A DNA stretch of 64,000 nucleotides from Candidatus Omnitrophota bacterium (GTDB lineage: Bacteria > Omnitrophota > Gorgyraeia > Aquiviventales > Aquiviventaceae): positions 1,457 to 65,456 of the forward strand of contig JACPAY010000007.1 of the NCBI GenBank assembly GCA_016180575.1. Direction: 5' to 3'. The translations under genes were made by a program, and so were the position numbers. Under the pieces are notes generated by a model that was not told the DNA's origin, did not search any database, and saw only the letters and a list, made by a program, of their open reading frames with translations. Below are positions 3,861-56,974 of this stretch, one piece after another (position 1 is the first letter of the stretch; every line of letters begins with the position of its first letter).

Positions 3861-3917
3861 ATGAGACAGGGGACAAGGGACAGGGGACATGTCTCCCGTC
3901 TCCTGTCTCATGTCTCC
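3861..3917 (+). repeat. R1 palindromic element, intergenic copy (rplN-rplX spacer)
   Basis: ATGAGACAGGGGACAAGGGACAGGGGAC / ATGTCTCCCGTCTCCTGTCTCATGTCTCC; arms built from 7-nt units GGGGACA and TGTCTCC. Confidence 0.85.
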
Positions 3918-5553: not shown

Positions 5554-5572
5554 GATGGGTGGTTGACGCGTG

Positions 5573-6136
5573 ATGTCCCGCATCGGACGCGCCCCCATCC
5601 CGATGCCGACCGGCGTCAAGGTGACGCAGGAGGGTCCGCGGCTGCTCGTCGAGGGGCCGAAGGGGAAGCTGTCGCTCGCCATCCCCGCGGCGATCTCGGT
5701 CAGCGTGGACGGCCAGACGGTCCGGGTGCAGCGCGCCGGCGACGAGGCGCGCCAGCGGGCGCTGCACGGGCTGACCCGCGCCCTGGTCGCCAACATGGTC
5801 CACGGCGTCTCCGCCGGGTTTTCGAAAGAGCTGGAGATCGCGGGCGTCGGCTACCGGGCGCAGCTGCAGGGCAAACAGCTCTCGCTCCAGGTCGGGTTCT
5901 CGCATCCGGTCGTGGTCCCCATCCCCGAGGGGCTGACCGTGGAGGTGCCCAAGCCCACCTCGGTGGTGGTCAAGGGGTCCGACAAGCACCTCGTCGGGCA
6001 GTTCGCGGCCAACATCCGCCGCATCGCCCCGCCGGAGCCGTATAAGGGCAAGGGGATCAAGTACGCGGGAGAGATCATCCGCCGGAAAGCGGGGAAGGCC
6101 GCGACCGGCGCGGGCGCCAAGGCGCAAGCGGGATGA
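5573..6136 (+). CDS. rplF: 50S ribosomal protein L6
   Basis: Track ORF 5570..6136; ATG at 5573 gives [12 protein letters not shown]… typical L6. Confidence 0.95.
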
Positions 6137-6207
6137 TCCTTCGACTCGCTTCGCTCGCTCAGGATCATGGTGAGCAAGGCTCCGGCAGGAGCCGCGTCGA
6201 ACCATGA
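6132..6207 (+). repeat. R2 gene-junction element (rplF stop to rplR start)
   Basis: GATGATCCTTCGACTCGCTTCGCTCGCTCAGGATCATGGTGAGCAAG-GGCTCCGGCAGGAGCC-GCGTCGAACCATGA. Confidence 0.9.
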
Positions 6208-6569
6208 ACCCGGCCATCGATCGGGCGGTGGGGCGGCGGATCCGGCACCGACGACTCCGCAAGAAGGTCGCGGGGCTGCCGGACCGCCCCCGGCTGTGCG
6301 TCTTCCGCAGCCACAAGCACCTGTACGCCCAGCTCATCGATGATCTGGCCGGCAAGACGCTCCTGGGGTGGTCCACGAAGGACGAGCGGCTCAAGCGGCT
6401 GCGGAGCGGCGGCACGGTGGCGGCCGCCAAGGAGCTGGGCGCCCTCGTCGCCACCGACATCGCCCAGAAGGGCCTCAAACGAATCGTGTTCGATCGCGGA
6501 GGGTATCGCTACCACGGGCGGGTCCAGGCGCTCGCCGAGTCGCTCCGAGCGGGGGGCGTGGAGGTCTGA
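6204..6569 (+). CDS. rplR: 50S ribosomal protein L18
   Basis: Track ORF; [12 protein letters not shown]…[20 protein letters not shown]… typical L18; the start ATG lies inside repeat R2. Confidence 0.95.
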
Positions 6570-8935: not shown

Positions 8936-9595
8936 GTGCGCATCGTCCTCCTCGGCCCCCCGGGGGCGGGCAAGGGGTCGTTGGCGTCGCTCTATGACAT
9001 CCGTCTGGGGATCGCGCACCTCTCGACCGGGGAGATCTTCCGGCAGGAGATCGCGCGCCGCAGCGCCCTCGGACGCCGGGTGCGGCGCTACGTCCTGAGC
9101 GGCCGCCTGGTGCCTGATGCCCTGGTGGTCGAGGTGATGGCGGCCAGGCTTCGGCGCGCGCGGGCTGCGGGGTTCGTCCTGGACGGCTTCCCCCGGACCG
9201 CGGGACAGGCGCAGGGGCTGGACCGGGTCCTCGCGCGGCAGTGGCGGCGGCTCGACGCGGCCGTCTATCTGATCTCGCCGCAGCCGCTGCTGGTCAAGCG
9301 GCTCTCCGGGCGCCGGGTGTGCAGCCGGTGCGGAGCCAACTACCACCTGCGCACCATGCGGCCCAAGCGGGCGGGCCGCTGCGACCGCTGCGGCGGGCGG
9401 CTGACGGTCCGGAAGGACGACCAGCCCCGCATGATCCGCAAGCGGCTGGCGGTGGACCGGAAGGCGGCCGCGCCGCTTGTGGCCTATTACCGGCGCCGCG
9501 GGCTGCTCCATCGGGTCAACGGGGTCGGCAACGTGGAGACGGTGTATCGCCGGACGCTGGCGCTCTTTCGCCGTCATCGCTGGCTGCCATCATGA
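8936..9595 (+). CDS. adk: adenylate kinase (Cys4 lid)
   Basis: Track ORF; GPPGAGKG P-loop; lid CSRCG…CDRCGG. Confidence 0.94.
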   Translation: MRIVLLGPPGAGKGSLASLYDIRLGIAHLSTGEIFRQEIARRSALGRRVRRYVLSGRLVPDALVVEVMAARLRRARAAGFVLDGFPRTAGQAQGLDRVLARQWRRLDAAVYLISPQPLLVKRLSGRRVCSRCGANYHLRTMRPKRAGRCDRCGGRLTVRKDDQPRMIRKRLAVDRKAAAPLVAYYRRRGLLHRVNGVGNVETVYRRTLALFRRHRWLPS

Positions 9596-16177: not shown

Positions 16178-16187
16178 TAGAGCGTTT

Positions 16188-16286
16188 GGCCGCGGGTCCT
16201 GCCGCGCCGCCACCCCGCCGGCTGTCCTCGGCCTCGTCGGCCTGCGGGCAGGCGGCGGGGGCCCCGGCTCCGCGTCACCCGCGGCC
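16188..16286 (+). repeat. R3 99-nt GC-rich element (icd-lipA junction)
   Basis: Termini GGCCGCGGGT…ACCCGCGGCC; near-identical to the copies at 25220 and 56515 (reverse complement). Confidence 0.9.
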
Positions 16287-17111
16287 GTCTGCGAGAGCGC
16301 GCGCTGTCCCAACTTGCACGAGTGCTGGTCCAAGCGGCAGCTCACGTTCATGATCCTGGGCGAGCGCTGCACCCGCAGCTGCCGCTTCTGCGCGGTGGCG
16401 CACGGCCGGCCCGAGCCGGTCGAGGCGGATGAGCCCTGGCGCGTGGCGGAGGCGGTGCGGCGGCTCGGCCTCGTGCACGTCGTCATCACGTCGGTGGCGC
16501 GGGACGACCTCCGGGATGAGGGCGCCGGCCACTTCATCGAGGTCATCCGGACGGTTCGCCGCGAGAACCCAGGCGTGACGGTGGAGATTCTTATCCCGGA
16601 CTTCCACGGCCGGGAGGAGCTGGTGCAGGCGGTCGTCGGGGACGGGCGGCCCGACGTCTTCGCCCACAACGTGGAAACGGTCGAGCGGCTCTCCGGCCTC
16701 CTGCGGCCGCAGGCGGCCTACCGACGGTCGCTGCGCGTGCTCGGCCTCGCCGCCTCGCAGGGCGGGGAGTGCCTGATCAAGTCCGGCCTGATGCTGGGCC
16801 TGGGCGAAACCGCTGAGGAGATGGAACGGACCTTCGAAGACCTGCGCGCGGCCGGCGCCACCCACCTGACCATCGGGCAGTACCTCCGGCCGGACGCCGA
16901 CCACCTGCCGGTGCAGGAGTACGTCAGCCCGGAGCGGTTCGCGGAGTACGAGGCGCTCGCCTACCGCGCGGGGTTTGCGTGGGTGCGGTCCGGCCCATTC
17001 GTCCGCAGCTCCTACCACGCCGCCGAAGGCGTACACATGAGGAGTCCGGTTCCCGCTTTCCTATCGGAGAACTCTGGGAAACCGGGAACCGGACCCGGGA
17101 CTATCGCATGA
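16287..17111 (+). CDS. lipA: lipoyl synthase; initiation codon unresolved, C-terminus runs into repeat R4
   Basis: Track ORF starts at TTG 16314, but the in-frame conserved CESARCPNLHEC (CX4CX5C) begins at 16290. Radical-SAM CTRSCRFC motif present. Frame is open back to 16167 with no ATG/GTG/TTG. Confidence 0.8.
   Translation, partial: VCESARCPNLHECWSKRQLTFMILGERCTRSCRFCAVAHGRPEPVEADEPWRVAEAVRRLGLVHVVITSVARDDLRDEGAGHFIEVIRTVRRENPGVTVEILIPDFHGREELVQAVVGDGRPDVFAHNVETVERLSGLLRPQAAYRRSLRVLGLAASQGGECLIKSGLMLGLGETAEEMERTFEDLRAAGATHLTIGQYLRPDADHLPVQEYVSPERFAEYEALAYRAGFAWVRSGPFVRSSYHAAEGVHMRSPVPAFLSENSGKPGTGPGTIA
17037..17106 (+). repeat. R4 70-nt hairpin element (lipA 3' end / aminotransferase start)
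   Basis: ATGAGGAGTCCGGTTCCCGCTTTCCTATCGGAGAACTCTGGGAAACCGGGAACCGGACCCGGGACTATCG; 12-bp perfect stem GTCCGGTTCCCG/CGGGAACCGGAC. Confidence 0.9.
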
Positions 17112-19591: not shown

Positions 19592-20427
19592 GCGCGAAGT
19601 ACGCCGCCTATCGAACGGCGCAATGGCTCAGCCAGCGCCTGCCGTCGCCGGCGGCATTCGGCTGCGCCGAGCGCGTGGCCGACCTGTGGATCCGGGGCGC
19701 CCGCCGCGAGCGCGCCGCGATCCGCGCCAACCTCGCCCTGGCGCTGGAGGCTGCCGCGCCGGAGGCCACACTCGTCCGGGAGGTGTTCCGCAACTTCGGC
19801 CGCTACCTGGTGGAGTTCTTCACCATCCATCAGACCCCGAAGCCCGCGGTGTCGGTCGAGGGCTACGACCATCTCCTGAACGCCAGGCGCCGGGGAAGCG
19901 GCGCCGTGCTCCTGACCGGCCACCTCGGCAACTGGGAGGTCGGGGCGGTCCTCCTGCGCCGCATGGGCCTGCCCGTCGCGGTGATCGCCCTGCCGCATGA
20001 CGATGCCGGGACGAACCGGCTCTTCAACCGCCAACGGCACCGCTGCGGCCTCGAGGTGATCCCGGTGGGCGAGGACGCGGCGCAGCGCAGCCTGCAGCGG
20101 CTCCGGGAAGGGTGCCTCCTCGGCGTCCTCGGCGACCGGGAGTTCGGCGGGCACGGCGTGCCGGTCCGCATCTTCCGCCGCGAGCTCCTCCTGCCGAGCG
20201 GCCCGGCCATCCTGAGCCTCCGGGCCCGCGTGCCGGTCATCCCCACGTTCCTCATCCGGGAAGGCCCCTGGCGCTTCCGCCTGTGCCTGGAGCCGGCCAT
20301 CCAGCCCGACGGGCAGGAGGGGGCCGCGTTGGTCCCTCGATTGACCCAGCGCTACGCGCAGGTCCTCGAGCGATACGTGCGGCGGACGCCGACGCAGTGG
20401 CTGCTCTTCGAGCCGGCCATGGGATGA
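19510..20427 (+). CDS. lysophospholipid/lipid A acyltransferase family protein (start uncertain)
   Basis: Track ORF; LLTGHLGNWEV (HX4D/E acyltransferase motif). GTG 19510 overlaps the upstream gene by 82 nt; CTG 19588 is an alternative start. Confidence 0.7.
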   Translation: MRARRPVPGPPAARSGPPAAHRGGALLSAKYAAYRTAQWLSQRLPSPAAFGCAERVADLWIRGARRERAAIRANLALALEAAAPEATLVREVFRNFGRYLVEFFTIHQTPKPAVSVEGYDHLLNARRRGSGAVLLTGHLGNWEVGAVLLRRMGLPVAVIALPHDDAGTNRLFNRQRHRCGLEVIPVGEDAAQRSLQRLREGCLLGVLGDREFGGHGVPVRIFRRELLLPSGPAILSLRARVPVIPTFLIREGPWRFRLCLEPAIQPDGQEGAALVPRLTQRYAQVLERYVRRTPTQWLLFEPAMG

Positions 20428-20948
20428 GGGCGCTCGTCATCAGCCACCTGCGCAACCAGGGGAAGGGCTGCGCCCTGCGGACCGGCTTCATGCATGCGCT
20501 GCGGGAGCACTTCGAGGGCATCGTCACCCTGGACAGCGACGGGCAGCACGACCCGGCCGACATCCCGCAGCTCATCGCCGAAGGCGAGCGGCAGCACGCG
20601 AGCCTGGTGCTCGGCAACCGGATGGCGAACGGCGCGCGGATGCCCACGGCGAGGCGGTGGACCAACGCCGCCATGTCGCGCCTCGTCTCGACGCGCATCC
20701 GGCAGCCCATCCCGGATTCCCAGTGCGGCTTCCGGTTCATCCACAAGGAACTGTTGGACACCCTCCCCCTGCGGGCGAAGCGGTTCGAAGGCGAGACCGA
20801 GCTGGTCATCTGGGCGGCTGTGCGGCGCTGGAAGATCATCTCCGTGCCGGTGCGCAGCACCGACCAGCGCCATCCCAGCCACATCCGCCCCGTGCGGGAC
20901 GCGGTCCGGTTCCTGGGCGTGCTGATCCGGTCGCTGGCCTGGCGATGA
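20424..20948 (+). CDS. glycosyltransferase family 2, N-terminally truncated (possible remnant)
   Basis: ATG 20424 overlapping the previous stop. NQGKGCALRTGF and LDSDGQHDP motifs present, but the usual N-terminal ~80 aa are absent in every frame upstream. Confidence 0.55.
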   Translation: MRALVISHLRNQGKGCALRTGFMHALREHFEGIVTLDSDGQHDPADIPQLIAEGERQHASLVLGNRMANGARMPTARRWTNAAMSRLVSTRIRQPIPDSQCGFRFIHKELLDTLPLRAKRFEGETELVIWAAVRRWKIISVPVRSTDQRHPSHIRPVRDAVRFLGVLIRSLAWR

Positions 20949-20984
20949 TCCAATGGTGAGCGAGTGAAACGAGTCGAACCATGA
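20944..20984 (+). repeat. R2 gene-junction element, short variant (GT2 stop to pcm start)
   Basis: GATGATCC-AATGGTGAGCGAG-TGAAA-CGAGTCGAACCATGA. Confidence 0.7.
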
Positions 20985-21619
20985 GCTTCGAGGAGCAGCG
21001 TGAGCAGATGGTCCTGGAGCAGCTCCTGGCTCGGGGGCTGACGGACGAACGGCTGCTGGCTGCCTTCCGCAAGGTCCCGCGCCACCGCTTCGTCCCGCCG
21101 GAGCTCGAGGCGCAAGCGTATACGGACCATCCGCTGCCGATCGGCGCCGGCCAGACGATCAGCCAGCCCTACATGGTGGCCCTGATGACCAGCCGCCTCG
21201 TCCTGCAGGGCCATGAGCGCGTCCTGGAAATCGGCGCGGGCTCCGGCTACCAGGCGGCCATCCTCGCGGAGCTGGCGCTGGAGGTCTTCTCCGTGGAGCG
21301 GATCCCGGAGCTGTTGCGCGCCGCGGCCGAGCGTCTGGGCGCCCTCGGGTACCTCAACGTCCACTTCACGGCCGGCAACGGATCGCTCGGATGGGCTGCG
21401 CATGCGCCCTACGACGCCATCGTGGTCACCGCAGCCGCCCCGGAGATCCCGGAACCGCTCCTCGCGCAACTGGCGGACGGCGGCACGATGGTCCTGCCCA
21501 TTGGCCCCCCCGAGGGCCAGATGCTCGTGGAGGCGCGCAAGCGGCATGGGACCGTCACGCAGCGCGAGATCGCCAGCTGCGTCTTCGTGCCGCTCCTCGG
21601 CCGATACGGCTGGACATGA
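20981..21619 (+). CDS. pcm: protein-L-isoaspartate O-methyltransferase
   Basis: Track ORF; ISQPYMVALMT…, VLEIGAGSGYQAAILAEL SAM motif; start ATG lies inside the short R2 repeat. Confidence 0.92.
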   Translation: MSFEEQREQMVLEQLLARGLTDERLLAAFRKVPRHRFVPPELEAQAYTDHPLPIGAGQTISQPYMVALMTSRLVLQGHERVLEIGAGSGYQAAILAELALEVFSVERIPELLRAAAERLGALGYLNVHFTAGNGSLGWAAHAPYDAIVVTAAAPEIPEPLLAQLADGGTMVLPIGPPEGQMLVEARKRHGTVTQREIASCVFVPLLGRYGWT

Positions 21620-25204: not shown

Positions 25205-25219
25205 TCCCTGGACCTGCGT

Positions 25220-25348
25220 GGCCGCGGGTCCTGCCGCGCCGCCACCCCGCCGGCTGTCCTCGGCCTGGTCGGCCTGCGGGCAGGCGGCGGGGGCCCCGGC
25301 TCCCCCGGCCCGCTCCGGCGTGCCGGGGCGGGCGCGTCACCCGCGGCC
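25220..25348 (+). repeat. R3 element, 129-nt variant with nested 30-nt insert
   Basis: Same termini; extra CCCCGGCCCGCTCCGGCGTGCCGGGGCGGG segment (itself a CCCCGGC/GCCGGGG hairpin). Confidence 0.9.
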
Positions 25349-27789: not shown

Positions 27790-28220
27790 AGATCCTGGTG
27801 ATCCACGGGCCGAACCTCCAGCTCCTGGGCAAGCGCCAACCCTCCATCTACGGGCACGCGGACCTGGCGTCGATCAACCGGGACCTCAAGCGGCGGGCGG
27901 CGGCGCGGCGGGCGGCGCTGACCATCGTGCAGTCCAACCATGAGGGCGAGATCGTGGAGCGGATCGGCGCGGCCAAGGACCGCTATGACGCGATCCTCAT
28001 CAACCCGGCCGCCTACACGCACACCAGCGTCGCCATCCGCGACGCGATCGAGGCCGCCGGCGTGCCCGCGGTGGAGGTCCACCTCTCCAACATCTACGCG
28101 CGCGAGCCGTTCCGGCACCAGTCGCTGATCGCCCCGGTCTGCCGGGGCCAGGTCTGCGGGTTCGGCGCCGCCAGCTACCGCTTGGGGCTCGAAGCGGCCC
28201 TCGCGCTGGGGAAGCATTGA
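27786..28220 (+). CDS. aroQ: type II 3-dehydroquinate dehydratase
   Basis: In-frame ATG 27786 in track ORF 27708..28220; MKILVIHGPNLQLLGKRQPSIYG… and HLSNIYAREPFRH motifs. Confidence 0.95.
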   Translation: MKILVIHGPNLQLLGKRQPSIYGHADLASINRDLKRRAAARRAALTIVQSNHEGEIVERIGAAKDRYDAILINPAAYTHTSVAIRDAIEAAGVPAVEVHLSNIYAREPFRHQSLIAPVCRGQVCGFGAASYRLGLEAALALGKH

Positions 28221-29305: not shown

Positions 29306-30661
29306 ATGTTTTCGAAGATCCTGATCGCCAACCGGGGAGAGATCGCCGTCCGCGTCATCCGGGCCTGCAAGGAGATGGGCATCCGGACGGTCGCGGTCTA
29401 CTCCGAGGCGGACCGGAGCAGCCTCCACGTCCGCCTGGCCGACGAGGCGATCTGCATCGGGGGCCCGAAGCCTGAGCAGAGCTACCTCAATATCCCGGCG
29501 ATCATCAGCGCCGCCGAGATCACGGATGTCGAGGGGATCCACCCGGGCTACGGCTTCCTCTCCCAGAACGCCCACTTCGCGGAGATCTGCGAATCCTGCA
29601 ACATCACCTTCATCGGGCCGCCCCCGCAGGCGATGCAGCTCATGGGCGACAAGCTCGCGGCGAAGGACCTCATGCGGAAGGCCGGCATCCCGATCATCCC
29701 CGGGAGCATGGCCGCGGTCCGCAACAAGGAGGACGCCCTGAAGACCGCCCGGCGCATCCAGTACCCGGTCATCGTCAAGGCGGCGGCGGGCGGGGGCGGG
29801 CGGGGGATGCGGGTGTGCCACAATGACGTCCGGCTCATCAGCGCCCTCATGACCTGCCAGGCGGAGGCCGAGGCCAGCTTCGGCAACCGGGACGTCTTCG
29901 TCGAGAAGTACCTCCCGGAGCCCCGGCACATCGAGTTCCAGATCCTCGCGGACAGGTTCGGCCACACGATCCACCTGGGGGAGCGGGATTGCACGATCCA
30001 GCGGCGCCACCAGAAGCTCGTGGAGGAATCGCCCTCCCCGGCGGTCGACGCGAAGCTCCGGCGGAAGATGGGCGAGCTGTCGGTCCGGGCGGCCAAGGCG
30101 GCCGGGTACGTCTCCGCGGGGACGGTGGAGTTCCTCCTCAGCCGGGACGGGACGTTCTACTTCATCGAGATGAACACCCGCATCCAGGTCGAGCACCCGG
30201 TCACGGAGATGGTGACGGGGCTCGACCTCGTCAAGGAGCAGATCCGGATCGCGGCGGGCGAATCGCTCGGCTATAAACAGGACGACATCGCCCTGGAGGG
30301 GTGGGCGATCGAATGCCGGGTCAACGCGGAAGACCCCTCGAACGGGTTCTCGCCCTGTCCGGGCCGCATCACGGAGTACCAGCCCCCGGGCGGGCGCGGC
30401 ATCCGCGTGGACACGCATGTCTTCGCCGGCTACGACGTGCCCCCGTTCTACGACTCCCTGCTCGCCAAGGTCATCAGCGTCGGGACCTCGCGCGAGGACG
30501 CCATCCGGATCATGCAGCGCGCGCTGGACGAGTTTCTCATCGAGCCGATCCGGACCACGATCCCCCTCCACCGGCAGATCTTCAGCGACCCGACATTCTG
30601 GCGCGGGCAGCTGGCCACCAACTACCTCGATCGGCAACTGCAACTTGGGGAGGCTGAATGA
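29306..30661 (+). CDS. accC: acetyl-CoA carboxylase biotin carboxylase
   Basis: Track ORF; [21 protein letters not shown]… and ATP-grasp blocks. Confidence 0.97.
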
Positions 30662-30735
30662 TCCTTCGACTCGCTTCGCTCGCTCAGGATCATGGTGAGC
30701 AAGTCCCGCCATTGGCGGGACGCGTCGAACCATGA
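30657..30735 (+). repeat. R2 gene-junction element (accC stop to pfk start)
   Basis: AATGATCCTTCGACTCGCTTCGCTCGCTCAGGATCATGGTGAGCAA-GTCCCGCCATTGGCGGGAC-GCGTCGAACCATGA. Confidence 0.9.
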
Positions 30736-31772
30736 GCGCTTCTGCGCGGCACCTGGGCGTGCTGACCGGCGGCGGCGACTGCCCCGGGCTCAACCCGGTC
30801 ATCCGGGCCGTCACGCGGCGGGCGATCCAGGGGGGGTTCGCGGTCATCGGCATCCGCAACGGCTGGAAGGGCCTCATCGAGGGCGACACGATGGCCCTGG
30901 ACCTCCAATCAGTCTCCGGCATCCTGCCGAAGGGCGGGACGATCCTGGGGACCTCCCGGACAAACCCCTACAAGCGGCCGGAGCAGCTCGCCCAGCTCCA
31001 TGAGACGGTCAAGCGCCTCAAGCTGGACGCCCTCATCGCGATCGGAGGTGAGGACACGCTCGGCGTCGCCACGAAGCTCGTGAAAGACGGTCTCAGGATC
31101 GTGGGGGTGCCCAAGACCATCGACAACGACCTGGCGATGACCGACTACACCTTCGGGTTCGACACGGCGGTCAACATCGCCATGGAGGCGATCGACCGGC
31201 TCCATACGACCGCCGAGAGCCACCACCGCATCATGGTGGCCGAGGTGATGGGGCGCCACGCCGGCTGGATCGCGACGTGCGCCGGCATCGCCGGCGGAGC
31301 GGACATCATCCTCATCCCGGAGGAGCCGATCGATCTGGACGCCGTCTGCGCCCTCATCAAGAAGCGCCACGCCCGCGGCAAGGACTTCAGCATCGTCGTG
31401 GTCGCGGAAGGCGCTCGGTTCAAGCAGGACGCCAACGTCACCGTCGAAGAAAAGCTGGACGAGTTCGGCCATGTCCGCCTGGGCGGAATCGGGCATGTCC
31501 TCGGGAGCCACATCGAGCAGCGAACCGGCTACGAGACGCGGGTGACGGTCCTGGGCCACCTCCAGCGCGGCGGCAGCCCGACCGCCTTCGACCGCATCCT
31601 GGGCACCCGGTTCGGCATCAAGGCGGTGGAGCTCGTCCTGGCGGGGCAGTTCGGCTCCATGGTGAGCCTCCAGGGCAACAAGATCGTCGCCGTCCCCATC
31701 GAGCAGGCCACCGGGTCGCTCAAGACGGTTGACCCGGAGCTCTACGAGATCGCAAAGATCTTCTTCGGATGA
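30732..31772 (+). CDS. 6-phosphofructokinase, residue pattern suggests pyrophosphate dependence
   Basis: Track ORF; GGGDCPGLN, IGGEDT (Asp where E. coli PfkA has Gly104) and PKTIDND (Lys where PfkA has Gly124); start ATG lies inside repeat R2. Confidence 0.85.
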   Translation: MSASARHLGVLTGGGDCPGLNPVIRAVTRRAIQGGFAVIGIRNGWKGLIEGDTMALDLQSVSGILPKGGTILGTSRTNPYKRPEQLAQLHETVKRLKLDALIAIGGEDTLGVATKLVKDGLRIVGVPKTIDNDLAMTDYTFGFDTAVNIAMEAIDRLHTTAESHHRIMVAEVMGRHAGWIATCAGIAGGADIILIPEEPIDLDAVCALIKKRHARGKDFSIVVVAEGARFKQDANVTVEEKLDEFGHVRLGGIGHVLGSHIEQRTGYETRVTVLGHLQRGGSPTAFDRILGTRFGIKAVELVLAGQFGSMVSLQGNKIVAVPIEQATGSLKTVDPELYEIAKIFFG

Positions 31773-32341
31773 GCGCCGAGGACACGATCCGGGCGAGCCT
31801 CCGGGAGACCGCCCGGCTCCTGGCGGAGTTCCCGGATGCCCAGACCGCCCGGGTCGCCAAGGCCGCCTCACTCATGGCGGAAGCGGTCCGCTCCGGCCGG
31901 AAGGTCATCTGGTTCGGCAACGGCGGCTCGGCGACGCAGGGCCAGCACATGGCGGCGGAGTTCGTGGGGCGGTTCCGGAAGGAGCGCCGCGCCCTGCCAT
32001 CGATCTCGCTGACCGAGAACATGGCCAGCGTCACCGCGATCGGCAACGACTACGCCTTCGAGCGGATCTTCGCGCGGCAGCTCGAAGGCCTGGGGCAGGC
32101 CGGGGACGCGGCGGTGGGGCTCTCAACCTCAGGGAACTCGCCCAACGTCCTCGAGGGGCTCCGCCAGGCCAAGGCGCTGGGCCTCTCCGCCATCGGCCTC
32201 ACCGGCGGCGACGGTGGGCGCATGGAAGCGCTGTGCGACGTCTGCATCTGCGTGCCCTCGACGGTCACGGCGCACGTCCAGGAAGCCCACCTCGCCATCG
32301 GGCACATCCTCTGCGGGCTGGTGGAAGATGCCATCAAATGA
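31769..32341 (+). CDS. gmhA: phosphoheptose isomerase (SIS domain)
   Basis: Track ORF; [17 protein letters not shown]…, [11 protein letters not shown]…, [12 protein letters not shown] blocks. Confidence 0.9.
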
Positions 32342-32407
32342 GGAGTCCGGTTCCCGCTTTCCCATCGGAGAACTCTGGGAAACCGGGAACCGGACCCGGG
32401 ACTATCG
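32338..32407 (+). repeat. R4 70-nt hairpin element (gmhA stop / hldC start)
   Basis: One substitution relative to the 17037 copy by eye; the gmhA TGA is nt 2-4 of the element. Confidence 0.9.
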
Positions 32408-32411
32408 GAGA

Positions 32412-32900
32412 CTGAAGGGACTTTCGCGCAAGATCAAATCAGCGGCCGCGCTCGCGCGCCTCGTGCGCGCGGCGCAGGCCCGCGGGCGGACCGTCGTCTT
32501 CACGAACGGCTGCTTCGACCTCCTCCACGCCGGCCATGTCACGCTCCTTGAGCGGGCCAGGCGGTGCGGTGACCTCCTCATCATCGGCCTCAACAGCGAC
32601 CGCTCGGTCCGGGCGCTCAAGGGGCCGCACCGCCCCCTCGTGGGCCAGCGGGACCGCGCGCGGTGCCTCGCGGCGCTGGAGAGCGTGGACTACGTCACCG
32701 TCTTCCACGACCGCACGCCCCGCCGGCTGATCGAGCGGCTGCGCCCGGACGTGCTGATCAAGGGCGCCGATTGGGGGCGCGCCGCGATCGTCGGCCGCGA
32801 CGCGGTCGAATCGCGCGGCGGCCGGGTCATCCGGCTGCCGCTCCTCAAGGGCTACTCCACCTCGCAGCTCATCGCCCGCATCCGACGGCATGGCAGCTAG
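32412..32900 (+). CDS. hldC: D-glycero-beta-D-manno-heptose-1-phosphate adenylyltransferase (RfaE domain II type); start codon unresolved
   Basis: Frame of track ORF 32214..32900; [19 protein letters not shown] cytidylyltransferase motif. No ATG after gmhA; candidate starts are CTG 32412 or GTG 32463. Confidence 0.75.
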
Positions 32901-42647: not shown

Positions 42648-42664
42648 TGGTCGTGTCTCAATTT

Positions 42665-42746
42665 GGCGGGTCCTGCCGCGCCGCCACCCCGTCGGCTGTC
42701 CTCGGCCTTCGCCTGCGGGCAGGCGACGGGGTCCCCGGCTCTGCGT
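42665..42746 (+). repeat. R3 element, degenerate copy lacking intact termini
   Basis: GGCGGGTCCTGCCGCGCCGCCACCCCGTCGGCTGTCCTCGGCCTTCGCCTGCGGGCAGGCGACGGGGTCCCCGGCTCTGCGT. Confidence 0.8.
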
Positions 42747-45212: not shown

Positions 45213-45249
45213 GGAGCAGGAAACAGGGAACCGGACCCGGGACTATTGG
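45209..45249 (+). repeat. R4 element, truncated copy (hom stop / thrC start)
   Basis: ATGAGGAGCAGGAAACAGGGAACCGGACCCGGGACTATTGG; left stem arm missing. Confidence 0.75.
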
Positions 45250-46312
45250 AAACCGGCAATGGCCCGGGGTGATTGAACGCTATCGCGCCTACCTTCCGGT
45301 CTCCCCCGCGACCCCCATCATCACGCTGCTGGAGGGGAACACCCCGCTCATCCACAGCCGCGCGCTGAGCCGCCGGTTGGGGCGGGGGATGTCGGTGTAC
45401 CTCAAGTACGAGGGGATGAACCCCACCGGCTCGTTCAAGGACCGCGGGATGACCGTGGCGATCTCGAAGGCGGTCGAGGCGAAGTCGGTCGCGGTCCTGT
45501 GCGCCTCCACCGGCAACACCTCCGCCTCGGCCAGCGCCTATGCGGCGCGGGCGGGGCTGCGCTCCATCGTCCTCATCCCGAGCGGCGCCGTGGCGCTGGG
45601 CAAGCTCTCGCAGGCGCTCATCCACGGGGCGCGCGTGGTGGTCGTGGACGCGAACTTCGACGCGTGCCTGGCGCTCGTGAAGTCGCTGGCCCAGGGGCAC
45701 CCCGTCACGCTGGTCAACTCCATCAACCCGCACCGCATCGAGGGCCAGAAGACGTGCGCCTTCGAGATCTGCGACGCGCTCGGCCGGGCGCCGGACTACC
45801 ACGTGACGCCCGTGGGCAACGCGGGCAACATCACGGCGCAGTGGAAGGGCTACACGGAGTACCGGCGGCGCGGGCGCATCACGCAGCGGCCCGCCATGCT
45901 GGGCTTTCAGGCCGAGGGCGCCGCCCCCCTGGTGCAGGGCCGCGTCATTAAGCACCCGCGCACGATCGCCACCGCCATCCGGATCGGCAACCCGGCCAGC
46001 TGGCAGGGGGCGCTCGCCGCGGCCGAGGAATCGGGCGGCGCCATCCAGGCGGTGAGCGACCGGCAGATCCTGGAGGCCTACCGCCTCCTCGCGTCAGAGG
46101 ACGGGGTGTTCGTGGAGCCGGCGTCGGCCGCCTCGGTCGCCGGCCTGCTGCGCCTGGCGCAGGCGGGATATTTCAAGAAGCGGGCGACCATCGTCTGCAT
46201 CCTCACCGGACACGGGCTCAAGGACCCCGAGCGCGCCATCAAGAGCATCCGCCTGGCGCGTCCCCTCCCGCCGTCGCTCTCCGCCATCACCAAAGCCGCC
46301 GGCCTGAAGTAA
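45209..46312 (+). CDS. thrC: threonine synthase (start either ATG 45209 inside repeat R4 or GTG 45269)
   Basis: Track ORF; GVIERYRAYLPV…TLLEGNTPL…NPTGSFKDRGM PLP-lysine motif. Confidence 0.92.
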   Translation: MRSRKQGTGPGTIGNRQWPGVIERYRAYLPVSPATPIITLLEGNTPLIHSRALSRRLGRGMSVYLKYEGMNPTGSFKDRGMTVAISKAVEAKSVAVLCASTGNTSASASAYAARAGLRSIVLIPSGAVALGKLSQALIHGARVVVVDANFDACLALVKSLAQGHPVTLVNSINPHRIEGQKTCAFEICDALGRAPDYHVTPVGNAGNITAQWKGYTEYRRRGRITQRPAMLGFQAEGAAPLVQGRVIKHPRTIATAIRIGNPASWQGALAAAEESGGAIQAVSDRQILEAYRLLASEDGVFVEPASAASVAGLLRLAQAGYFKKRATIVCILTGHGLKDPERAIKSIRLARPLPPSLSAITKAAGLK

Positions 46313-50399: not shown

Positions 50400-53219
50400 A
50401 TGTCTGCGCTCCCCCCCCAGTACAACCCCAAGGACGTCGAGGAAGCCCGCTACGCGTGGTGGGAATCCCAGGGCTTCTTCCGCGCCGACCCGGACCCCAA
50501 GCGGAAGCCCTACACCATCGTGATCCCGCCGCCCAACGTGACGGGCATCCTCCACATGGGCCACGCGCTCAACAACACCATCCAGGACATCCTCATCCGG
50601 TTTGCGCGCATGCAGGGGTTCAACGCCCTCTGGGTCCCGGGCACCGACCATGCCGGGATCGCCACCCAAAACGTCGTGGAGAAGGCGCTGGCCAAGGAAG
50701 GGAAGCGCCGGCAGGACCTGGGGCGCGAGGCGTTCCTCAAGCGCGTCTGGGAGTGGAAGGAGCAGTACGGCAACACGATCCTGTACCAGCTCAAGCGCCT
50801 CGGCGCCTCCTGCGACTGGCGGCGGACCCGGTTCACGATGGACGAGGGGCTCTCCGAAGCGGTCCTCGAGGTGTTCGTCCGGCTCTATGAGAAGGGGCTG
50901 ATCTACCGCGGGAACTACATCATCAACTGGTGCCCCCGGTGCCAGACCGCGCTCGCCGACGAGGAGGCGCCGCGCACCGAGACCCAGGGCAAGCTCTACC
51001 ACATCAAATACCCCATTTTGAGACAGGGGACAGGGGACAGGGGACAGGGGAAGACCACACCTGTCTCCCGTCCCATGTCTCCTGTCTCAGCTTTCATCGA
51101 GGTGGCCACGACCCGGCCGGAGACGATGCTGGGCGACACCGCCGTCGCCGTCCACCCGAAGGACAAGCGGTACAAAACGCTCATCGGAAAGCACGCCATC
51201 CTCCCGCTCGTGAACCGGAAGCTCGTCATCATCGCGGACGAGGCGGTGGACCGGGAGTTCGGCACCGGGGCGGTCAAGGTGACGCCGGCCCACGACCCGG
51301 TGGACTTCCAGCTCGGGAAGAAGCACAAGCTCGAGTTCATCAACGTGATGACCGACGACGCGAAGATGACCAATGTGCCGAAGCCCTACGAGGGGCTCGA
51401 CCGGCTCGACTGCCGCAGCAAGCTCATCGTGGACCTCGAGCAGCAGGGGTTCCTCGGCCGGATCGACGAGCACGTGCACAACGTCGGCCACTGCTACCGC
51501 TGCCACACGGCGGTGGAGCCGCGCCTCTCCCCGCAGTGGTTCGTGAAGATGAAGCCGCTCGCCGAGCCGGCGATCAAGGCGGTCAAGCAAGGGACGATTA
51601 AGTTCGTCCCGGCGCGGTGGACCAAGGTGTACCTCAACTGGATGGAGAACATCCAGGACTGGTGCATCAGCCGCCAGATCTGGTGGGGCCACCGGCTGCC
51701 CGTCTACTACTGCGAAAGCTGCCGGCGGAGACAGGAGACAGGAGACAGGAGACAAGCAAAGGCCCAACGTGTCTCCCGTCCCATGTCCCATGTCTCAGAA
51801 CCCGGTGTCATTGTTTCAAAGACGCGGCCGGAGCGGTGCCCAACCTGCGGCGGGACCGAGCTGGCGCAGGACGAGGACGTGCTGGACACGTGGTTCTCCT
51901 CCTGGCTGTGGCCGTTCTCGACGCTCGGCTGGCCGAAGAAGACTAAAGACCTCGCCTACTTCTATCCGACCGACACGCTCGTCACCGCGCAGGAGATCAT
52001 CTTCTTCTGGGTCGCCCGGATGGTCATGGCCGGCTACTTCTGCATGAAGCGGCCGCCGTTCACCACGGTCTCCATCCACGGCACGGTGCGCGACATCACC
52101 GGCAAGAAGATGTCGAAATCGCTCGGCAACATCATCGACCCGCTCGAGATGATCGGCCGCTACGGCACCGACGCGCTGCGCTACACGCTGGTGACCGCCA
52201 CCGCCATCGGCCAGGACATCTTCCTCTCGGAGGAGCGGTTCGCCGCCGGCCGCAACTTCGCCAACAAGCTCTGGAACGCCACCCGCTTCGTGCTCGCGCA
52301 GGACGGAATCGAAAAGTACCGGGTACTTCCCAAAGCGGGAAAAGTACCCGGTACTTTTTCAGTAGCGGACCGGTGGATCCTCTCGCGGCTCCAGCAGACC
52401 ACCGCCCGCGTCACGAAGTCGCTCGAGGCGTCCCTGTTCAATGACGCGGCCAGCGCGCTCTACGGCTTCCTCTGGCACGACTTCTGCGACTGGTACGTGG
52501 AGATCGCCAAGCACGTGCCGGCCGAGCAGCAGCCCGCCACCCGCGCGATCCTGCGGCACGTCCTTGAGCAGGCGCTGCGGCTGCTCCACCCGGTCATGCC
52601 CTTCGTGACCGAGGAGCTGTGGCAGCATCTGAGACAGGGAACCACCAAGCCACCTGTCTCTCGTCTCATGTCTCATGTCCCAATTTCGATTATGAAGGCG
52701 GAGTGGCCGAAGGTGGAGAAGCGTCTCATCGACCGCGAGGCGGAGCGGCTCTTCGAGCGGCTCCAGGCGGTCATCACCGCCATCCGGACCACGCGGTCTG
52801 AGCTCAACGTCCCGGTGGAGAGCCGGCCGCCGGTGCATCTGGCATCGCCGCAGGCCGAGGTCCGGATGTTTTTCGAGATCCACCGCCCGCTCCTCCAGCA
52901 GCTGGCCGCGCTGGGCGACATCAGCGTCGAGGCCAAGCGGCAGGCGGTGCGGCACGCGGCGGCCATGGTGGTGGACGGGGTCGAAGTCCTGATGCCGCTG
53001 GAAGGGCTCATCGACCCGGCGAAGGAGCGCGCGCGGCTCCAGCAGCGGCTCGACGACCTCACGCGGCAGAGGGCCCAGGCGGAGGCCAGGCTCAAGGACC
53101 GGCAGTTCACGACCAAAGCGCCCGCCGAGGTCGTGGAGCAGACCAAGACCCGGCGCGCCGAGCTCCAGGACACCGCCAAGAAGGTGTCCGAGCACCTGGC
53201 CGTGCTCCAGGGGATGTGA
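50400..53219 (+). CDS. valS: valine--tRNA ligase carrying four in-frame repeat insertions
   Basis: Track ORF, 939 aa; HIGH-type PPNVTGILHMGH, KMSKS, TTRPETMLGD, C-terminal coiled coil. Confidence 0.96.
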   Translation: MSALPPQYNPKDVEEARYAWWESQGFFRADPDPKRKPYTIVIPPPNVTGILHMGHALNNTIQDILIRFARMQGFNALWVPGTDHAGIATQNVVEKALAKEGKRRQDLGREAFLKRVWEWKEQYGNTILYQLKRLGASCDWRRTRFTMDEGLSEAVLEVFVRLYEKGLIYRGNYIINWCPRCQTALADEEAPRTETQGKLYHIKYPILRQGTGDRGQGKTTPVSRPMSPVSAFIEVATTRPETMLGDTAVAVHPKDKRYKTLIGKHAILPLVNRKLVIIADEAVDREFGTGAVKVTPAHDPVDFQLGKKHKLEFINVMTDDAKMTNVPKPYEGLDRLDCRSKLIVDLEQQGFLGRIDEHVHNVGHCYRCHTAVEPRLSPQWFVKMKPLAEPAIKAVKQGTIKFVPARWTKVYLNWMENIQDWCISRQIWWGHRLPVYYCESCRRRQETGDRRQAKAQRVSRPMSHVSEPGVIVSKTRPERCPTCGGTELAQDEDVLDTWFSSWLWPFSTLGWPKKTKDLAYFYPTDTLVTAQEIIFFWVARMVMAGYFCMKRPPFTTVSIHGTVRDITGKKMSKSLGNIIDPLEMIGRYGTDALRYTLVTATAIGQDIFLSEERFAAGRNFANKLWNATRFVLAQDGIEKYRVLPKAGKVPGTFSVADRWILSRLQQTTARVTKSLEASLFNDAASALYGFLWHDFCDWYVEIAKHVPAEQQPATRAILRHVLEQALRLLHPVMPFVTEELWQHLRQGTTKPPVSRLMSHVPISIMKAEWPKVEKRLIDREAERLFERLQAVITAIRTTRSELNVPVESRPPVHLASPQAEVRMFFEIHRPLLQQLAALGDISVEAKRQAVRHAAAMVVDGVEVLMPLEGLIDPAKERARLQQRLDDLTRQRAQAEARLKDRQFTTKAPAEVVEQTKTRRAELQDTAKKVSEHLAVLQGM
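51019..51089 (+). repeat. R1 palindromic element, in frame in valS (copy a)
   Basis: TGAGACAGGGGACAGGGGACAGGGGACAGGGGA-AGACCACAC-CTGTCTCCCGTCCCATGTCTCCTGTCTCA; translated LRQGTGDRGQGKTTPVSRPMSPVS. Confidence 0.9.
51727..51796 (+). repeat. R1 palindromic element, in frame in valS (copy b)
   Basis: GAGACAGGAGACAGGAGACAGGAGACA-AGCAAAGGCCCAAC-GTGTCTCCCGTCCCATGTCCCATGTCTCA; translated RQETGDRRQAKAQRVSRPMSHVS. Confidence 0.9.
52311..52360 (+). repeat. R6 palindrome in frame in valS
   Basis: GAAAAGTACCGGGTACTT-13 nt-AAGTACCCGGTACTTTTTC, about an 18-bp stem; translated EKYRVLPKAGKVPGTF. Confidence 0.75.
52630..52680 (+). repeat. R1 palindromic element, short copy in frame in valS (copy c)
   Basis: TGAGACAGGGA-ACCACCAAGCCAC-CTGTCTCTCGTCTCATGTCTCATGTCC; translated LRQGTTKPPVSRLMSHVP. 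Confidence 0.8.
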
Positions 53220-54100
53220 TGTCCGGCCTCAGCCGGGAGGCGGTCCTATCCCTCATCCGTCTCGCGCTGCGCGAGGATCAGGCCGGCCGCGACATCACCT
53301 CAACGGCCGTGCTGCCGGCAACCGCCCGCGCCCGGGCGCGGCTTATCGCGCGGGCGCCGGGCATCCTGGCCGGCGGCCAGGCGGCCGGGTGGGTGTTCCG
53401 CGCGGTGGACCGTCGGGTGCGATACCGCGTCAGACTGCATGACGGGACGGCGACGCGGCCAGGACAGGTGGTCGCGAACCTGGACGGGCCGGCTCGCTCC
53501 ATCTTCGCGGCGGAGCGGACCGCGCTGAACCTGCTGGGCCATCTCTCCGGCATCGCGACGCTCACCCACGCTTATGCCCGACGGGTCCGCGGCACCCGGG
53601 CCAAGGTCTACGACACCCGCAAGACGCTGCCGGGGCTGCGGGCCCTTGAAAAGCACGCGGTCCGCGCAGGCGGGGGGCGCAGCCACCGCGGCAGCCTGGC
53701 CGAGGCGGTCCTCATCAAGACGAACCATCTGAAGGCGCTGGGACAGGGGACAGGGGACAGGGGACAGGGGATCCAAAACGCCATTAAGCGGGCGAAACGC
53801 CGGTTCCCTGGCAAGTTCGTTGAAGTCGAAGTGAGAACGGTGCGCCAATTTCAATCGGCACTGACTGCGCAACCTGACGCCATTTTACTCGACAACATGT
53901 CTCTCCATGACGTCCGACGCGCCGTTCACCTGTCCCATGTCTCGCGTCCCTTGTCTCAAAAGCGGCCTCTGTTGGAGGTTTCAGGAGGCATTACCCTCAA
54001 AAATGTCCGGGCCTACGCCCGCGCGGGCGCGGACCGCATCTCCATCGGCCGGCTGACCCACTCGGCGCCTGCGCTGGACGTCTCGCTGGAAATCGTATGA
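53216..54100 (+). CDS. nadC: nicotinate-nucleotide diphosphorylase (carboxylating) carrying both R1 repeat arms in frame
   Basis: Track ORF; AERTALNLLGHLSGIAT, YDTRKTLPGLR, LIKTNH, EVEV, LLDNM, EVSGGI blocks. Confidence 0.92.
   Translation: MMSGLSREAVLSLIRLALREDQAGRDITSTAVLPATARARARLIARAPGILAGGQAAGWVFRAVDRRVRYRVRLHDGTATRPGQVVANLDGPARSIFAAERTALNLLGHLSGIATLTHAYARRVRGTRAKVYDTRKTLPGLRALEKHAVRAGGGRSHRGSLAEAVLIKTNHLKALGQGTGDRGQGIQNAIKRAKRRFPGKFVEVEVRTVRQFQSALTAQPDAILLDNMSLHDVRRAVHLSHVSRPLSQKRPLLEVSGGITLKNVRAYARAGADRISIGRLTHSAPALDVSLEIV
53741..53770 (+). repeat. R1 left arm alone, in frame in nadC
   Basis: GGACAGGGGACAGGGGACAGGGGACAGGGG; translated GQGTGDRGQG. Confidence 0.85.
53927..53958 (+). 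repeat. R1 right arm alone, in frame in nadC
   Basis: CACCTGTCCCATGTCTCGCGTCCCTTGTCTCA; translated HLSHVSRPLSQ. Confidence 0.8.
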
Positions 54101-56112: not shown

Positions 56113-56974
56113 GGCTAGGCTCTCCCGGCACATCGGCGGACGGCCGGTTCACGCGTTCCAACAGGTCGGCTCGACGATGGAGGTGGCGCACCAGCTGGCG
56201 GCTGAGGGCGCGGCGGAGGGCACGCTGGTCGTCGCCGCGCGCCAGGAGCAGGGGAGAGGCCGTCAGGGGCGGACGTGGGCGTCCCCGGAGGGCGGGGCCT
56301 ACTGCTCGCTCATCCTCCGGCCCGCGCGGCCTCCGTCCGAAACCCCGCAGCTCTCGCTGGTCGCCGGACTGGCCGCGGCTGAAGCCATCCGGGACATGGC
56401 CTGCCTCTACCCCGCGATCCGCTGGCCCAACGACCTCCTGCTGAGGGAGAAGAAGGTGGCCGGCATCCTCACTGAACAAAAAGTGCCAGGCTGCTCCGTC
56501 GAACATCCCCGTATGGCCGCGGGTGACGCGGAGCCGGGGCCCCCGCCGCCTGCCCGCAGGCCGAGGAGGCCGAGGACAGCCGACGGGGTGGCGGCGCGGC
56601 AGGACCCGCGGCCCGGCGTGGTCATCATCGGCATCGGGATCAACGTGGCCACCAATCCGGCGCAGCTGCCGGAGGGCTCGACCTCGCTGGCGGCCGAGGG
56701 GGCCCCGCACGTGAGCCGCGAGGAGCTGCTCGCCGGCTGGTGCCGCCGCTTCAGCGCCTGGTACGAGGTGTGGACGCGCCAGGGCTTCGGCCCCATCCGC
56801 GAGGCGCTGCGCCCCTGGATCGGCCTCTTCGGCCACCCGGTGCAGCTCACCGCGGGCTCCGAGCAGCTCCAAGGCACCGCCCAGGATCTCGACGAGTCCG
56901 GCCGCCTCCTTGTGCGCCTCGACTCCGGTGTTCAGCGCGCGTTCGAGATGGGGGAGGTCGCGCTGCTCAGATGA
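56075..56974 (+). CDS. birA: biotin--[acetyl-CoA-carboxylase] ligase (no HTH domain) with in-frame R3 insertion
   Basis: Track ORF; QEQGRGRQGRTWASP motif, IRWPNDLLL…KKVAGIL, IGIGINV. Start ATG 56075 overlaps uvrB by 38 nt. Confidence 0.88.
   Translation: MSRASVQRDPELEARLSRHIGGRPVHAFQQVGSTMEVAHQLAAEGAAEGTLVVAARQEQGRGRQGRTWASPEGGAYCSLILRPARPPSETPQLSLVAGLAAAEAIRDMACLYPAIRWPNDLLLREKKVAGILTEQKVPGCSVEHPRMAAGDAEPGPPPPARRPRRPRTADGVAARQDPRPGVVIIGIGINVATNPAQLPEGSTSLAAEGAPHVSREELLAGWCRRFSAWYEVWTRQGFGPIREALRPWIGLFGHPVQLTAGSEQLQGTAQDLDESGRLLVRLDSGVQRAFEMGEVALLR
56515..56613 (-). repeat. R3 99-nt element, inverted orientation, in frame inside birA
   Basis: Reverse complement matches the 16188 copy; exactly 99 nt between GGCCGCGGGT and ACCCGCGGCC. 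Confidence 0.9.

Follow-up and report, generated by a model that had tools for sequence, protein, structure and literature searches.

Three gene junctions in the window analysed here (the whole stretch of Candidatus Omnitrophota DNA, 64,000 nucleotides long) carry copies of a short repeat, R2. They lie between rplF and rplR, between accC and pfk, and between a GT2 gene and pcm. All three copies start with ATGATCC and end with the 12-mer GTCGAACCATGA, which has exactly three exact occurrences in the window. The copies, their parts, and the codons at their ends are as follows.

6133-6207, plus strand: R2 copy 1, long form, from the 5′ ATGA through the 3′ ATGA; net insertion of 71 nt relative to the empty site
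6134-6136, plus strand: TGA stop of rplF (ORF 5570-6136), at the position of the ancestral ATGA overlap
6133-6207, plus strand: mini-ORF of copy 1, 24 codons and a stop; it opens with the ATG at the ancestral start position and closes with a TGA lying across the new rplR ATG
6140-6161, minus strand: left hairpin module of copy 1, a minimal module (TGAGCGAGCGAAGCGAGTCGAA) closed by ATGATCC/GGATCAT
6165-6171, plus strand: central TCATGGT of copy 1, complementary to the 5′ ATGA(TCC) via GGATCAT and also to the 3′ ACCATGA
6171-6201, plus strand: right hairpin module of copy 1, TGAGCAAG...GCGTCGAA; its variable hairpin, GCTCCGGCAGGAGC, spans 6179-6192
6204-6206, plus strand: ATG start of rplR (6204-6569), its A coming from the element and its TG from the duplicated TGA
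20945-20984, plus strand: R2 copy 3, short form, at the GT2/pcm junction, with one hairpin module at 20957-20978
20946-20948, plus strand: stop of the GT2 gene, whose ORF ends at 20948
20981-20983, plus strand: start of pcm (20981-21619)
30658-30735, plus strand: R2 copy 2, long form, at the accC/pfk junction
30659-30661, plus strand: stop of accC (ORF 29306-30661)
30665-30686, bottom strand: left module of copy 2; its centre is at 30690-30696, its right module at 30696-30729, and its variable hairpin at 30703-30721
30732-30734, plus strand: start of pfk (30732-31772)

Copy 1 reads ATGA TCC TTCGAC TCGCTTCGCTC GCTCA GGATCATGG TGAGCAAG (GCTCCGGCAGGAGC) CGC GTCGAA CC ATGA, with the variable hairpin in brackets, and copy 2 is the same except that its variable hairpin is GTCCCGCCATTGGCGGGAC. 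The left arm of both is the minimal module on the bottom strand. The short form, copy 3, reads ATGA TCCA ATGG TGAGCGAG TGAAA CGAGTCGAA CC ATGA. Allowing one mismatch in GTCGAACCATGA gives four matches in the window against 0.29 expected from shuffles; the fourth, at 27932, lies inside coding sequence and was rejected, as were loose matches at 40938 and 48415, which are chance matches in coding sequence. We found no true copies in the window beyond the three. Three independent Logan assemblies from the source organism (L119-L121) all begin 53 nt upstream of rplR, within the left arm of R2, and such breakage of short-read assemblies inside R2 is consistent with a multi-copy element.

The first-pass annotation of this DNA, whose coordinates for the copies were each one base off (the correct starts are 6133, 30658, and 20945), had proposed that the conserved 5′ end of R2 holds the TGA that closes rplF, accC, and the GT2 gene, and that the conserved 3′ end holds the ATG that opens rplR, pfk, and pcm. 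Both statements hold for all three copies, the first from the ORF ends and the second in agreement with homologues: L18 proteins of relatives are 121 aa long and share their N-terminal register with the window rplR, PFK relatives of 345-347 aa support the pfk start, and Pcm relatives begin MSFD or MTFD where the window protein begins MSFE. The complementarity noted at the same time is also correct, with CATGGT at 6166-6171 complementary to ACCATG at 6201-6206. The accompanying claim that no Shine-Dalgarno sequence lies within about 15 nt of the ATGs is not strictly true for copy 1, in which an AGGAG (6187-6191) sits 12 nt before the rplR ATG, inside the variable hairpin.

The GT2 gene (20424-20948) has a start that overlaps the preceding lipid A acyltransferase-like gene as ATGA (20424-20427). 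It is without about 55 N-terminal residues that are present in relatives (MSGRYCVVIPAFN...VVDDGSTD), and it may be truncated or inactive.

The window comes from a Candidatus Omnitrophica MAG, and its L18 matches an NCBI protein encoded on a 126-kb contig at 100% identity. In relatives, the three junctions are found without R2. The rplF/rplR junction is a plain ATGA overlap in three related Candidatus Omnitrophica loci (L122, L123, and L127), reading ...GCGGG ATGA GCC in GCA_023247155.1, whose L18 protein is 91% identical, and in L127, with the same string in L122. At the accC/pfk junction, L220 and L221 likewise have the plain ATGA overlap (...GAGGCTGA ATGA TCTC in GCA_023247155.1; ...GAGGGTGA ATGA GCGC in GCA_016196345.1), and so does L223 at the GT2/pcm junction (...TGGCG ATGA GCTTCGAT; GCA_016196345.1). 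Relatives have the bare ATGA where the window at all three junctions has ATGA-element-ATGA; R2 is therefore an insertion into a stop/start overlap, with one (A)TGA added. The closest relative, GCA_023247155.1, does contain R2 at a different locus (L077), so the family is present in that lineage and absent from the three window sites. A copy in a relative with 74% L18 identity (L043) was checked as a possible R2 at rplF/rplR and does not lie at that junction.

Three times in the window genome, R2 has entered the 4-nt ATGA in which a stop codon overlaps the next start. Each integration leaves a TGA on both sides, with the element supplying the terminal A. The stop of the upstream gene is kept, and the ATG of the downstream gene is restored from the element's A and the duplicated TGA.

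The R2 family and its genomic locations

We scanned 185,579 species genomes with the pattern ATGGTGAGCRAG-N(5-30)-GTCGAACC, obtaining at least 118 loci, and scanned metagenomes with the centre only (GCTCAGGRYCATGGTGAGCRAG), obtaining 91 loci whose ends were unconstrained. The genome matches include some chance matches in coding sequence beside the conserved hairpin module. With no constraint on the ends, public genomes and metagenomes hold at least 79 unique full R2 copies, and GCTCAGGNNNNATGGTGAGC is the proposed R2 pattern with the centre unconstrained. Copies range from 40 to 125 nt in length, with three in the 64-kb window, and contain no transposase gene.

The unit common to these sequences is an irregular hairpin module, (TCA)TGG-TGAGCRAG-(variable hairpin or GAA-type loop)-CKMGTCGAA-CCA(TGA). 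The long form of R2 is an inverted doublet of two modules with a common central TCA, and the short form is a single module. The boxes of the two arms are inverted (TTCGAC...GCTCA versus TGAGC...GTCGAA), and terminal inverted repeats are present (YCC-TTCGAC...GTCGAA-CCA), in which just 6-7 of 9 terminal bases match. Folded by hand, the module forms a stem with two tandem G.A/A.G steps. The R of GAGCRAG covaries with the base before GTCGAACC (G/A in 44 copies, A/C in 25; p = 4e-17), and these positions, which switch from G.A to A.C, are non-Watson-Crick. The minimal module has the loop GCGAAGC, a very stable DNA mini-hairpin.

Among the matches listed, the module occurs in many Omnitrophota, in metagenome-assembled genomes (MAGs) labelled Planctomycetota, Ignavibacteriales, Holophagae, Bacteroidota, Elusimicrobia, and Synechococcus, and in the isolate Longimonas halophila, while the full inverted-pair form belongs mainly to Omnitrophota. 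The module, surrounded by GTC ATGG ... CC AT, is also embedded in other lineage-specific multi-copy repeats of distant phyla, mostly without ATGA flanks. Examples are L028 (the cultured Longimonas halophila KCTC 42399), L052 (a Synechococcus MAG), L015, L061, L067, and L113 (one Ignavibacteriales MAG), and L005, L024, and L042 (one Holophagae MAG). Nested insertions occur as well, with one R2-like unit inside the variable loop of another (L196, approximately 130-300; L129, minus strand).

The 79 unique full copies fall into the following types by 5′ flank, central triplet, and 3′ flank.

TGA/TCA/TGA: 44 copies
TGG/CCA/TGG: 17 copies
CGG/CCA/CGG: 1 copy (L160)
Other combinations of TGA and TGG, with discordant flanks or a mismatched centre: 4 copies

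In the other 13 of 79, the 5′ triplet was not callable or the 3′ sequence was different. Among the 71 copies whose 5′ triplet could be called, 63 have two flanking triplets that agree, and the associations between flanks and centre have Fisher p values between 4e-14 and 4e-15. An A precedes the 3′ triplet in 74 of 76 scored copies and in 72 of 72 with a TGA or TGG 3′ flank, a constancy that indicates that this A is carried by the element. Before the 5′ TGA, the counts are A 36, G 12, C 4, and T 0, the bias toward A and G that is expected from ATGA and GTGA overlaps; the base before the 5′ TGG is unbiased.

We scored the 44 TGA-type copies for ORFs of at least 60 codons that end at the 5′ TGA or start at the 3′ ATG, using control frames for comparison. 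An upstream ORF ends at the 5′ TGA in 32 of 44 copies (control, 18 of 88) and a downstream ORF starts at the 3′ ATG in 39 of 44 (control, 16 of 88), with long ORFs on both sides in 31 of 44. The low-GC subset gives 11 of 18 against 1 of 36 upstream and 15 of 18 against 1 of 36 downstream. One copy (L141) lies directly upstream of rpoB. Treating the ends of R2 as gene boundaries is therefore borne out beyond the three copies on which the first-pass annotation had based it, at rates to be set against approximately 20% in control frames, and its picture of a portable intergenic element stands insofar as the ends of 44 TGA-type copies match real boundaries far outside the window. The further claim that R2 brings its own termination and initiation signals needs revision, in that the ancestral junction was already a stop/start ATGA, although the terminal A does rebuild the ATG.

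The TGG-type copies have another location. On the 3′ side they are flanked by a tRNA 3′ end in reverse complement, TGG corresponding to CCA, and ARAGORN confirmed an adjacent tRNA at 12 of 21 loci tested. Where the centre is CCA, R2 lies antisense and immediately against the tRNA CCA end, for example in L138, L145, L156, L177, L194, L195, L197, L202, L211, and L216. The variable hairpin of the TGG type is an A-tract/T-tract hairpin that, from its sequence, looks like a (bidirectional) terminator.

Several other repeats were observed in these genomes. A second, unrelated miniature element with ends TCCCACCACCTGCG...CGCAGGTGGTGGG occurs in other Omnitrophota, including at the same rplF/rplR and accC/pfk junctions (L125:8205-8343; L222:5892-6000; L124:5396-5504, 9113-9245, and 16293-16434; L127:1379-1514), and has several copies within one ribosomal-protein operon. 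Its flanks, ATGA..ATGA and once GTGA..GTGA, point to a 4-bp duplication. The closest relative has a third, small palindromic insert, GCCGCCCATCCACCCCATGGCTGGGGTGG..., at L224:2964-3000, again flanked by ATGA..ATGA; it occupies the GT2/pcm junction, which in the window contains the short R2. The window itself contains a repeat family ATGAGGAGTCCGGTTCCC...GGGACTATCG (17034-17111, 32335-32412, and 45219-45253), of which the copy at 17034 is bounded by ATGA..ATGA with 71 nt between the ATGs and the copy at 32335 starts at the TGA stop of the ORF 31769-32341. A palindromic family, (TGA)GACAGGGGACAGGGGACA...TGTCTCCCGTC..TGTCTCA, lies at 3862-3916, 51019-51090, 51727-51798, 52652-52681, and 53739-53957; several of its copies begin at TGA, and at 53739-53957 the arms are approximately 150 nt apart. 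An 85-nt GC-rich palindromic repeat, with up to 99% identity between copies, is present at 16187-16271, 25219-25303, 42661-42745, and, in reverse, 56510-56600.

Mini-ORFs and a proposed role in translational coupling

The 5′ ATGA of R2 occupies the ancestral junction position, and it was at the ATG within it that the downstream gene ancestrally started. From this ATG, copy 1 is open through to its 3′ ATGA, and copy 2 is open over its whole span as a mini-ORF of 25 codons, the products of both ending in ...RVEP*. The mini-ORF of copy 3 (ATG ATC CAA TGG TGA) has only 4 codons, stopping at the central TGA and ending at 20959. Across the TGA-type copies, the relay frame is held in 27 of 44 (naive p = 1.3e-4) and in 11 of 19 distinct element lengths (p = 0.024), the frame statistic being inflated because copies of the same subfamily have a common length. 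Of the 27 copies in frame, 26 have open mini-ORFs that end exactly at the 3′ ATGA, and 5 more copies are open in frame with the downstream gene. The relay frame is absent from 17 of 44 copies, including window copy 3, so such a relay is not obligatory.

According to the passages of PMC10666635 that treat it, termination-reinitiation coupling requires an overlap or a very short gap, and it is from this requirement that we infer a relay role for the mini-ORF. Ribosomes that formerly re-initiated at the overlap would now start at the same ATG, translate a mini-ORF of approximately 20-25 codons across R2, and terminate where its TGA overlaps the new ATG. The arrangement of the reading frames suggests that the mini-ORF relays translational coupling in this manner. 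Coupling, as raised in the first-pass annotation, is plausible, but through a relay mini-ORF that had been missed.

Base pairing, site choice, and alternative origins

We counted base pairs in a 66-row alignment of R2 copies, in which slid controls were 14-59% paired. Stem A, formed by the 5′ ATGRYCC with GGRYCAT, is 97% paired and has 2 covarying pairs, 7-19 (A-U 47, G-C 17) and 8-18 (C-G 53, U-A 11). The centre YCATGGT pairs with the 3′ ACCATGR in 99.4% of cells, with 1 covarying pair (U-A 45, C-G 18). The two pairings have the TCAT in common and are mutually exclusive. The covariation rests mainly on two subfamilies and may have only a few evolutionary events behind it; the TGG type is found with both module subtypes, which implies at least two switches. 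The predicted folding energies of the window copies only modestly beat those of shuffles, with z = -2.5 (copy 1), -1.6, and -0.1, and the short form has no significant fold relative to shuffles.

Taking these data with the empty sites, we consider it likely that R2 is a small mobile DNA element that has integrated into ATGA overlaps and rebuilds both stop and start, with a relay mini-ORF and with pairing as an aid to siting. The triplet at the insertion site matches a complementary internal triplet, TCA going with TGA sites and CCA with TGG sites at tRNA CCA ends. Base pairing would help to select or process the site, possibly on single-stranded DNA, with the enzyme supplied in trans. Strict orientation, which relative to TGA is 44 to 0 among the TGA/TGA copies, together with the complementarity of centre and flanks, favours a pairing-assisted, strand-specific step, and these features suggest, somewhat more weakly than in the case of the relay, that pairing aids the choice or processing of the insertion site. 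In L160 (CGG/CCA/CGG) and L039 (TGG/TCA/TGG), the two flanks agree with each other but not with the centre; these copies fit a true target duplication, favouring a real one of 3 bp, and indicate that the pairing is not strict.

Genes that might mobilize R2 were sought around the copies. Scanned against Pfam, 148 ORFs lying no more than 1.3 kb from module copies at 27 loci showed only housekeeping families, with no transposase or recombinase beside the modules. No Y1 or RAYT match below E = 0.3 came from tblastn searches of the 1.5 Mb of fetched loci with approximate IS200 and IS608 TnpA queries, and no pair of R2 ends in the same loci encloses an ORF as an autonomous copy would. Copies with a long variable loop were rejected as autonomous elements, being nested insertions or having degenerate ends (e.g., L141, upstream of rpoB). 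A viral carrier was likewise rejected, the 4 matches in viral contigs being chance coding matches, and a search of plasmids for R2 gave no match.

One alternative is that R2 belongs to the classical cut-and-paste MITEs, mobilized by a DDE transposase that makes a 3-bp TNA-like duplication; orientation and location would then reflect selection only, and the central complementarity would be a by-product of the terminal inverted repeats. The inverted arms (TTCGAC...GCTCA versus TGAGC...GTCGAA) are as expected of such an element, as are the flanks that agree even when mismatched to the centre in L160 and L039, and the second family in relatives, found at sites of this type, has perfect inverted ends of 14-16 bp with ATGA/ATGA or GTGA/GTGA duplications. 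We nonetheless think a MITE rather unlikely. A reversed element would likewise end in A and rebuild the ATG, yet orientation is 44 to 0; TGG is not a TNA target; the covariation of the central triplet with both flanks is unpredicted by target choice through protein only; and no autonomous partner with R2 ends was found among the fetched loci.

The covariation of the centre with both flanks and the strand-specific insertion at a tri- or tetranucleotide speak for a single-strand element of the IS200/IS605 or REP/RAYT type, in which an HUH tyrosine enzyme would recognise the hairpin, TCAT at the 5′ foot of the hairpin would be the guide for the cleavage and target site ATGA, and there would be no true duplication. 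R2 has a guide-like TCAT(GG) directly 5′ of the hairpin foot and ATGA 2 nt 3′ of the foot, and the conserved non-Watson-Crick hairpin positions and minimal GCGAAGC loop noted above also suit such an element. This comparison is based on the layout of IS608, in which a guide reportedly lies at the hairpin foot, as worked out by Barabas in 2008. Against it, neither the neighbouring ORFs nor the 1.5 Mb of loci yielded a Y1 or RAYT gene, the two arms are inverted and not on the same strand, L160 (CGG on both sides) and L039 resemble real duplications, and the GTAG and CGTC tags by which known REPs are marked are both missing from R2. We regard this origin as improbable.

A third alternative, closest to the emphasis of the first-pass annotation, is a host cis-regulatory RNA (such as a leader, thermosensor, or processing site) that would control translation of the downstream gene through a stem sequestering the start codon, which we judge very unlikely: ACCATGA does pair with TCATGGT in 99.4% of cells, gene-associated copies are all in sense orientation, and copy 1 folds with z = -2.5, but close relatives lack R2 at the orthologous junctions, and R2 precedes unrelated genes, has no Rfam match, keeps the same pairing in copies antisense beside tRNA genes, and in its short form has no significant fold. 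The start codon does pair with the upstream TCATGGT, in line with the stem that had been proposed; what does not stand is that the stem evolved as a translational switch. Because the same pairing covaries in TGG-type copies that have no start codon, it belongs to the hairpin architecture of the element.

If R2 is a mobile element as we propose, it illustrates how selfish DNA can colonise the most constrained regions of compact genomes without polar damage, using a 4-nt overlap as a landing pad and regenerating both codons. Its constrained sites include a ribosomal-protein operon, the junction immediately upstream of rpoB (L141), and accC/pfk. R2 would account for some of the spaced gene pairs and tiny ORFs found within operons, and it bears in practice on start-codon calling and on assembly breaks in Omnitrophota MAGs. 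A bolder extension, which we entertain as speculative and hold to be improbable, is that R2 represents a class of base-pair-programmed integrating elements with a 3-4 nt guide at the hairpin foot, whose lineages are retargetable and whose relay keeps essential operons coupled. Elements with TCAT would then land in ATGA stop/start overlaps, and those with CCAT at ATGG, where tRNA genes have their CCA end. Were the central triplet to direct target choice, R2 would be a very small, naturally reprogrammable DNA-insertion system, and lineages of one element could retarget to different safe sites.

Comparison with known elements

A search of the window with Rfam 15 gave only 2 tRNA matches at the gathering score, and copy 1, searched with E up to 10, reached at best 14 bits, where the threshold is 42. 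The module was also compared by eye with hammerhead, twister, and pistol cores, integron attC sites, and a tRNA acceptor/T-arm mimic, none of which fits. Literature searches with R2 sequence strings returned only unrelated primers, and those on Omnitrophota repeats and on MITEs with stop/start overlaps returned no description of R2.

Insertion of IS200/IS605 elements is reportedly orientation-specific and next to a short sequence complementary to a guide at the hairpin foot, as is said to be described by Barabas and colleagues in 2008 and by He and colleagues in 2015. R2 is similar in its strand-specific insertion (44 to 0) and in its internal complementary triplet at a hairpin foot. It differs in having inverted arms where those elements have subterminal hairpins on the same strand, in flanks that look truly duplicated, and in that no TnpA was detected in the 1.5 Mb of loci.

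In mode of residence, R2 resembles the mycobacterial MIRUs. According to the passages of PMC3184786 that summarize Supply et al. 1997, MIRUs are units of 40-100 bp lying between genes that belong to one operon; their sites occur empty as well as filled, with tetranucleotide direct repeats when filled, and the units have internal GC-rich inverted repeats and small ORFs whose ends overlap the flanking genes. As far as those passages go, R2 is alike in unit size, operon location, tetranucleotide repeats at filled sites, and internal inverted repeats, as well as in an ORF whose start and stop overlap the stop and start of its neighbours in window copies 1 and 2 and in 26 of 44 copies overall. The sequence of R2 is unrelated, and its hosts are Omnitrophota and others in place of mycobacteria. 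R2 is mostly single-copy per site, whereas MIRUs usually form tandem arrays. The inverted pair of hairpin modules, the TGG/CCA subfamily at tRNA ends, and an internal triplet that covaries with the flanks are further features that set R2 apart.

In form, R2 is closer to REP and REPIN sequences, short imperfect palindromes that often occur as inverted doublets between co-directional genes (PMC3116915; PMC3733652), the termini of which often give the stop codon of the flanking ORF and one class of which, CGTC, has no known transposase (PMC3733652). Copies 1 and 2 are likewise inverted doublets with one module per strand. R2 is nevertheless without the GTAG or CGTC tag, its module foot being (TC)ATGG, and the definition of the CGTC class (a stem starting AT and a loop of 4-5 nt) does not fit it. 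No RAYT gene was found near R2 in the 1.5 Mb of loci searched with approximate TnpA queries, and R2 sits at a defined tetranucleotide and rebuilds a start as well as a stop. Neisseria REP2 and related Borrelia repeats, as they are treated in the relevant part of PMC3184786, give the downstream gene its initiation signals including the ATG, as R2 does; they differ in carrying a promoter and a ribosome-binding site and, within that part, are not known in stop/start overlaps.

Judged on its sequence, R2 fails the sequence-defined membership of MIRU, REP/REPIN, and Neisseria REP2, and it is an analogue of MIRUs and not one of them. By analogy, it would work like a MIRU and looks like a REPIN. What appears new in R2 is that it uses the ATGA overlap precisely and regenerates both codons, together with its cross-phylum distribution, the tRNA-CCA subfamily, and the three-way covariation of both flanks and the centre.
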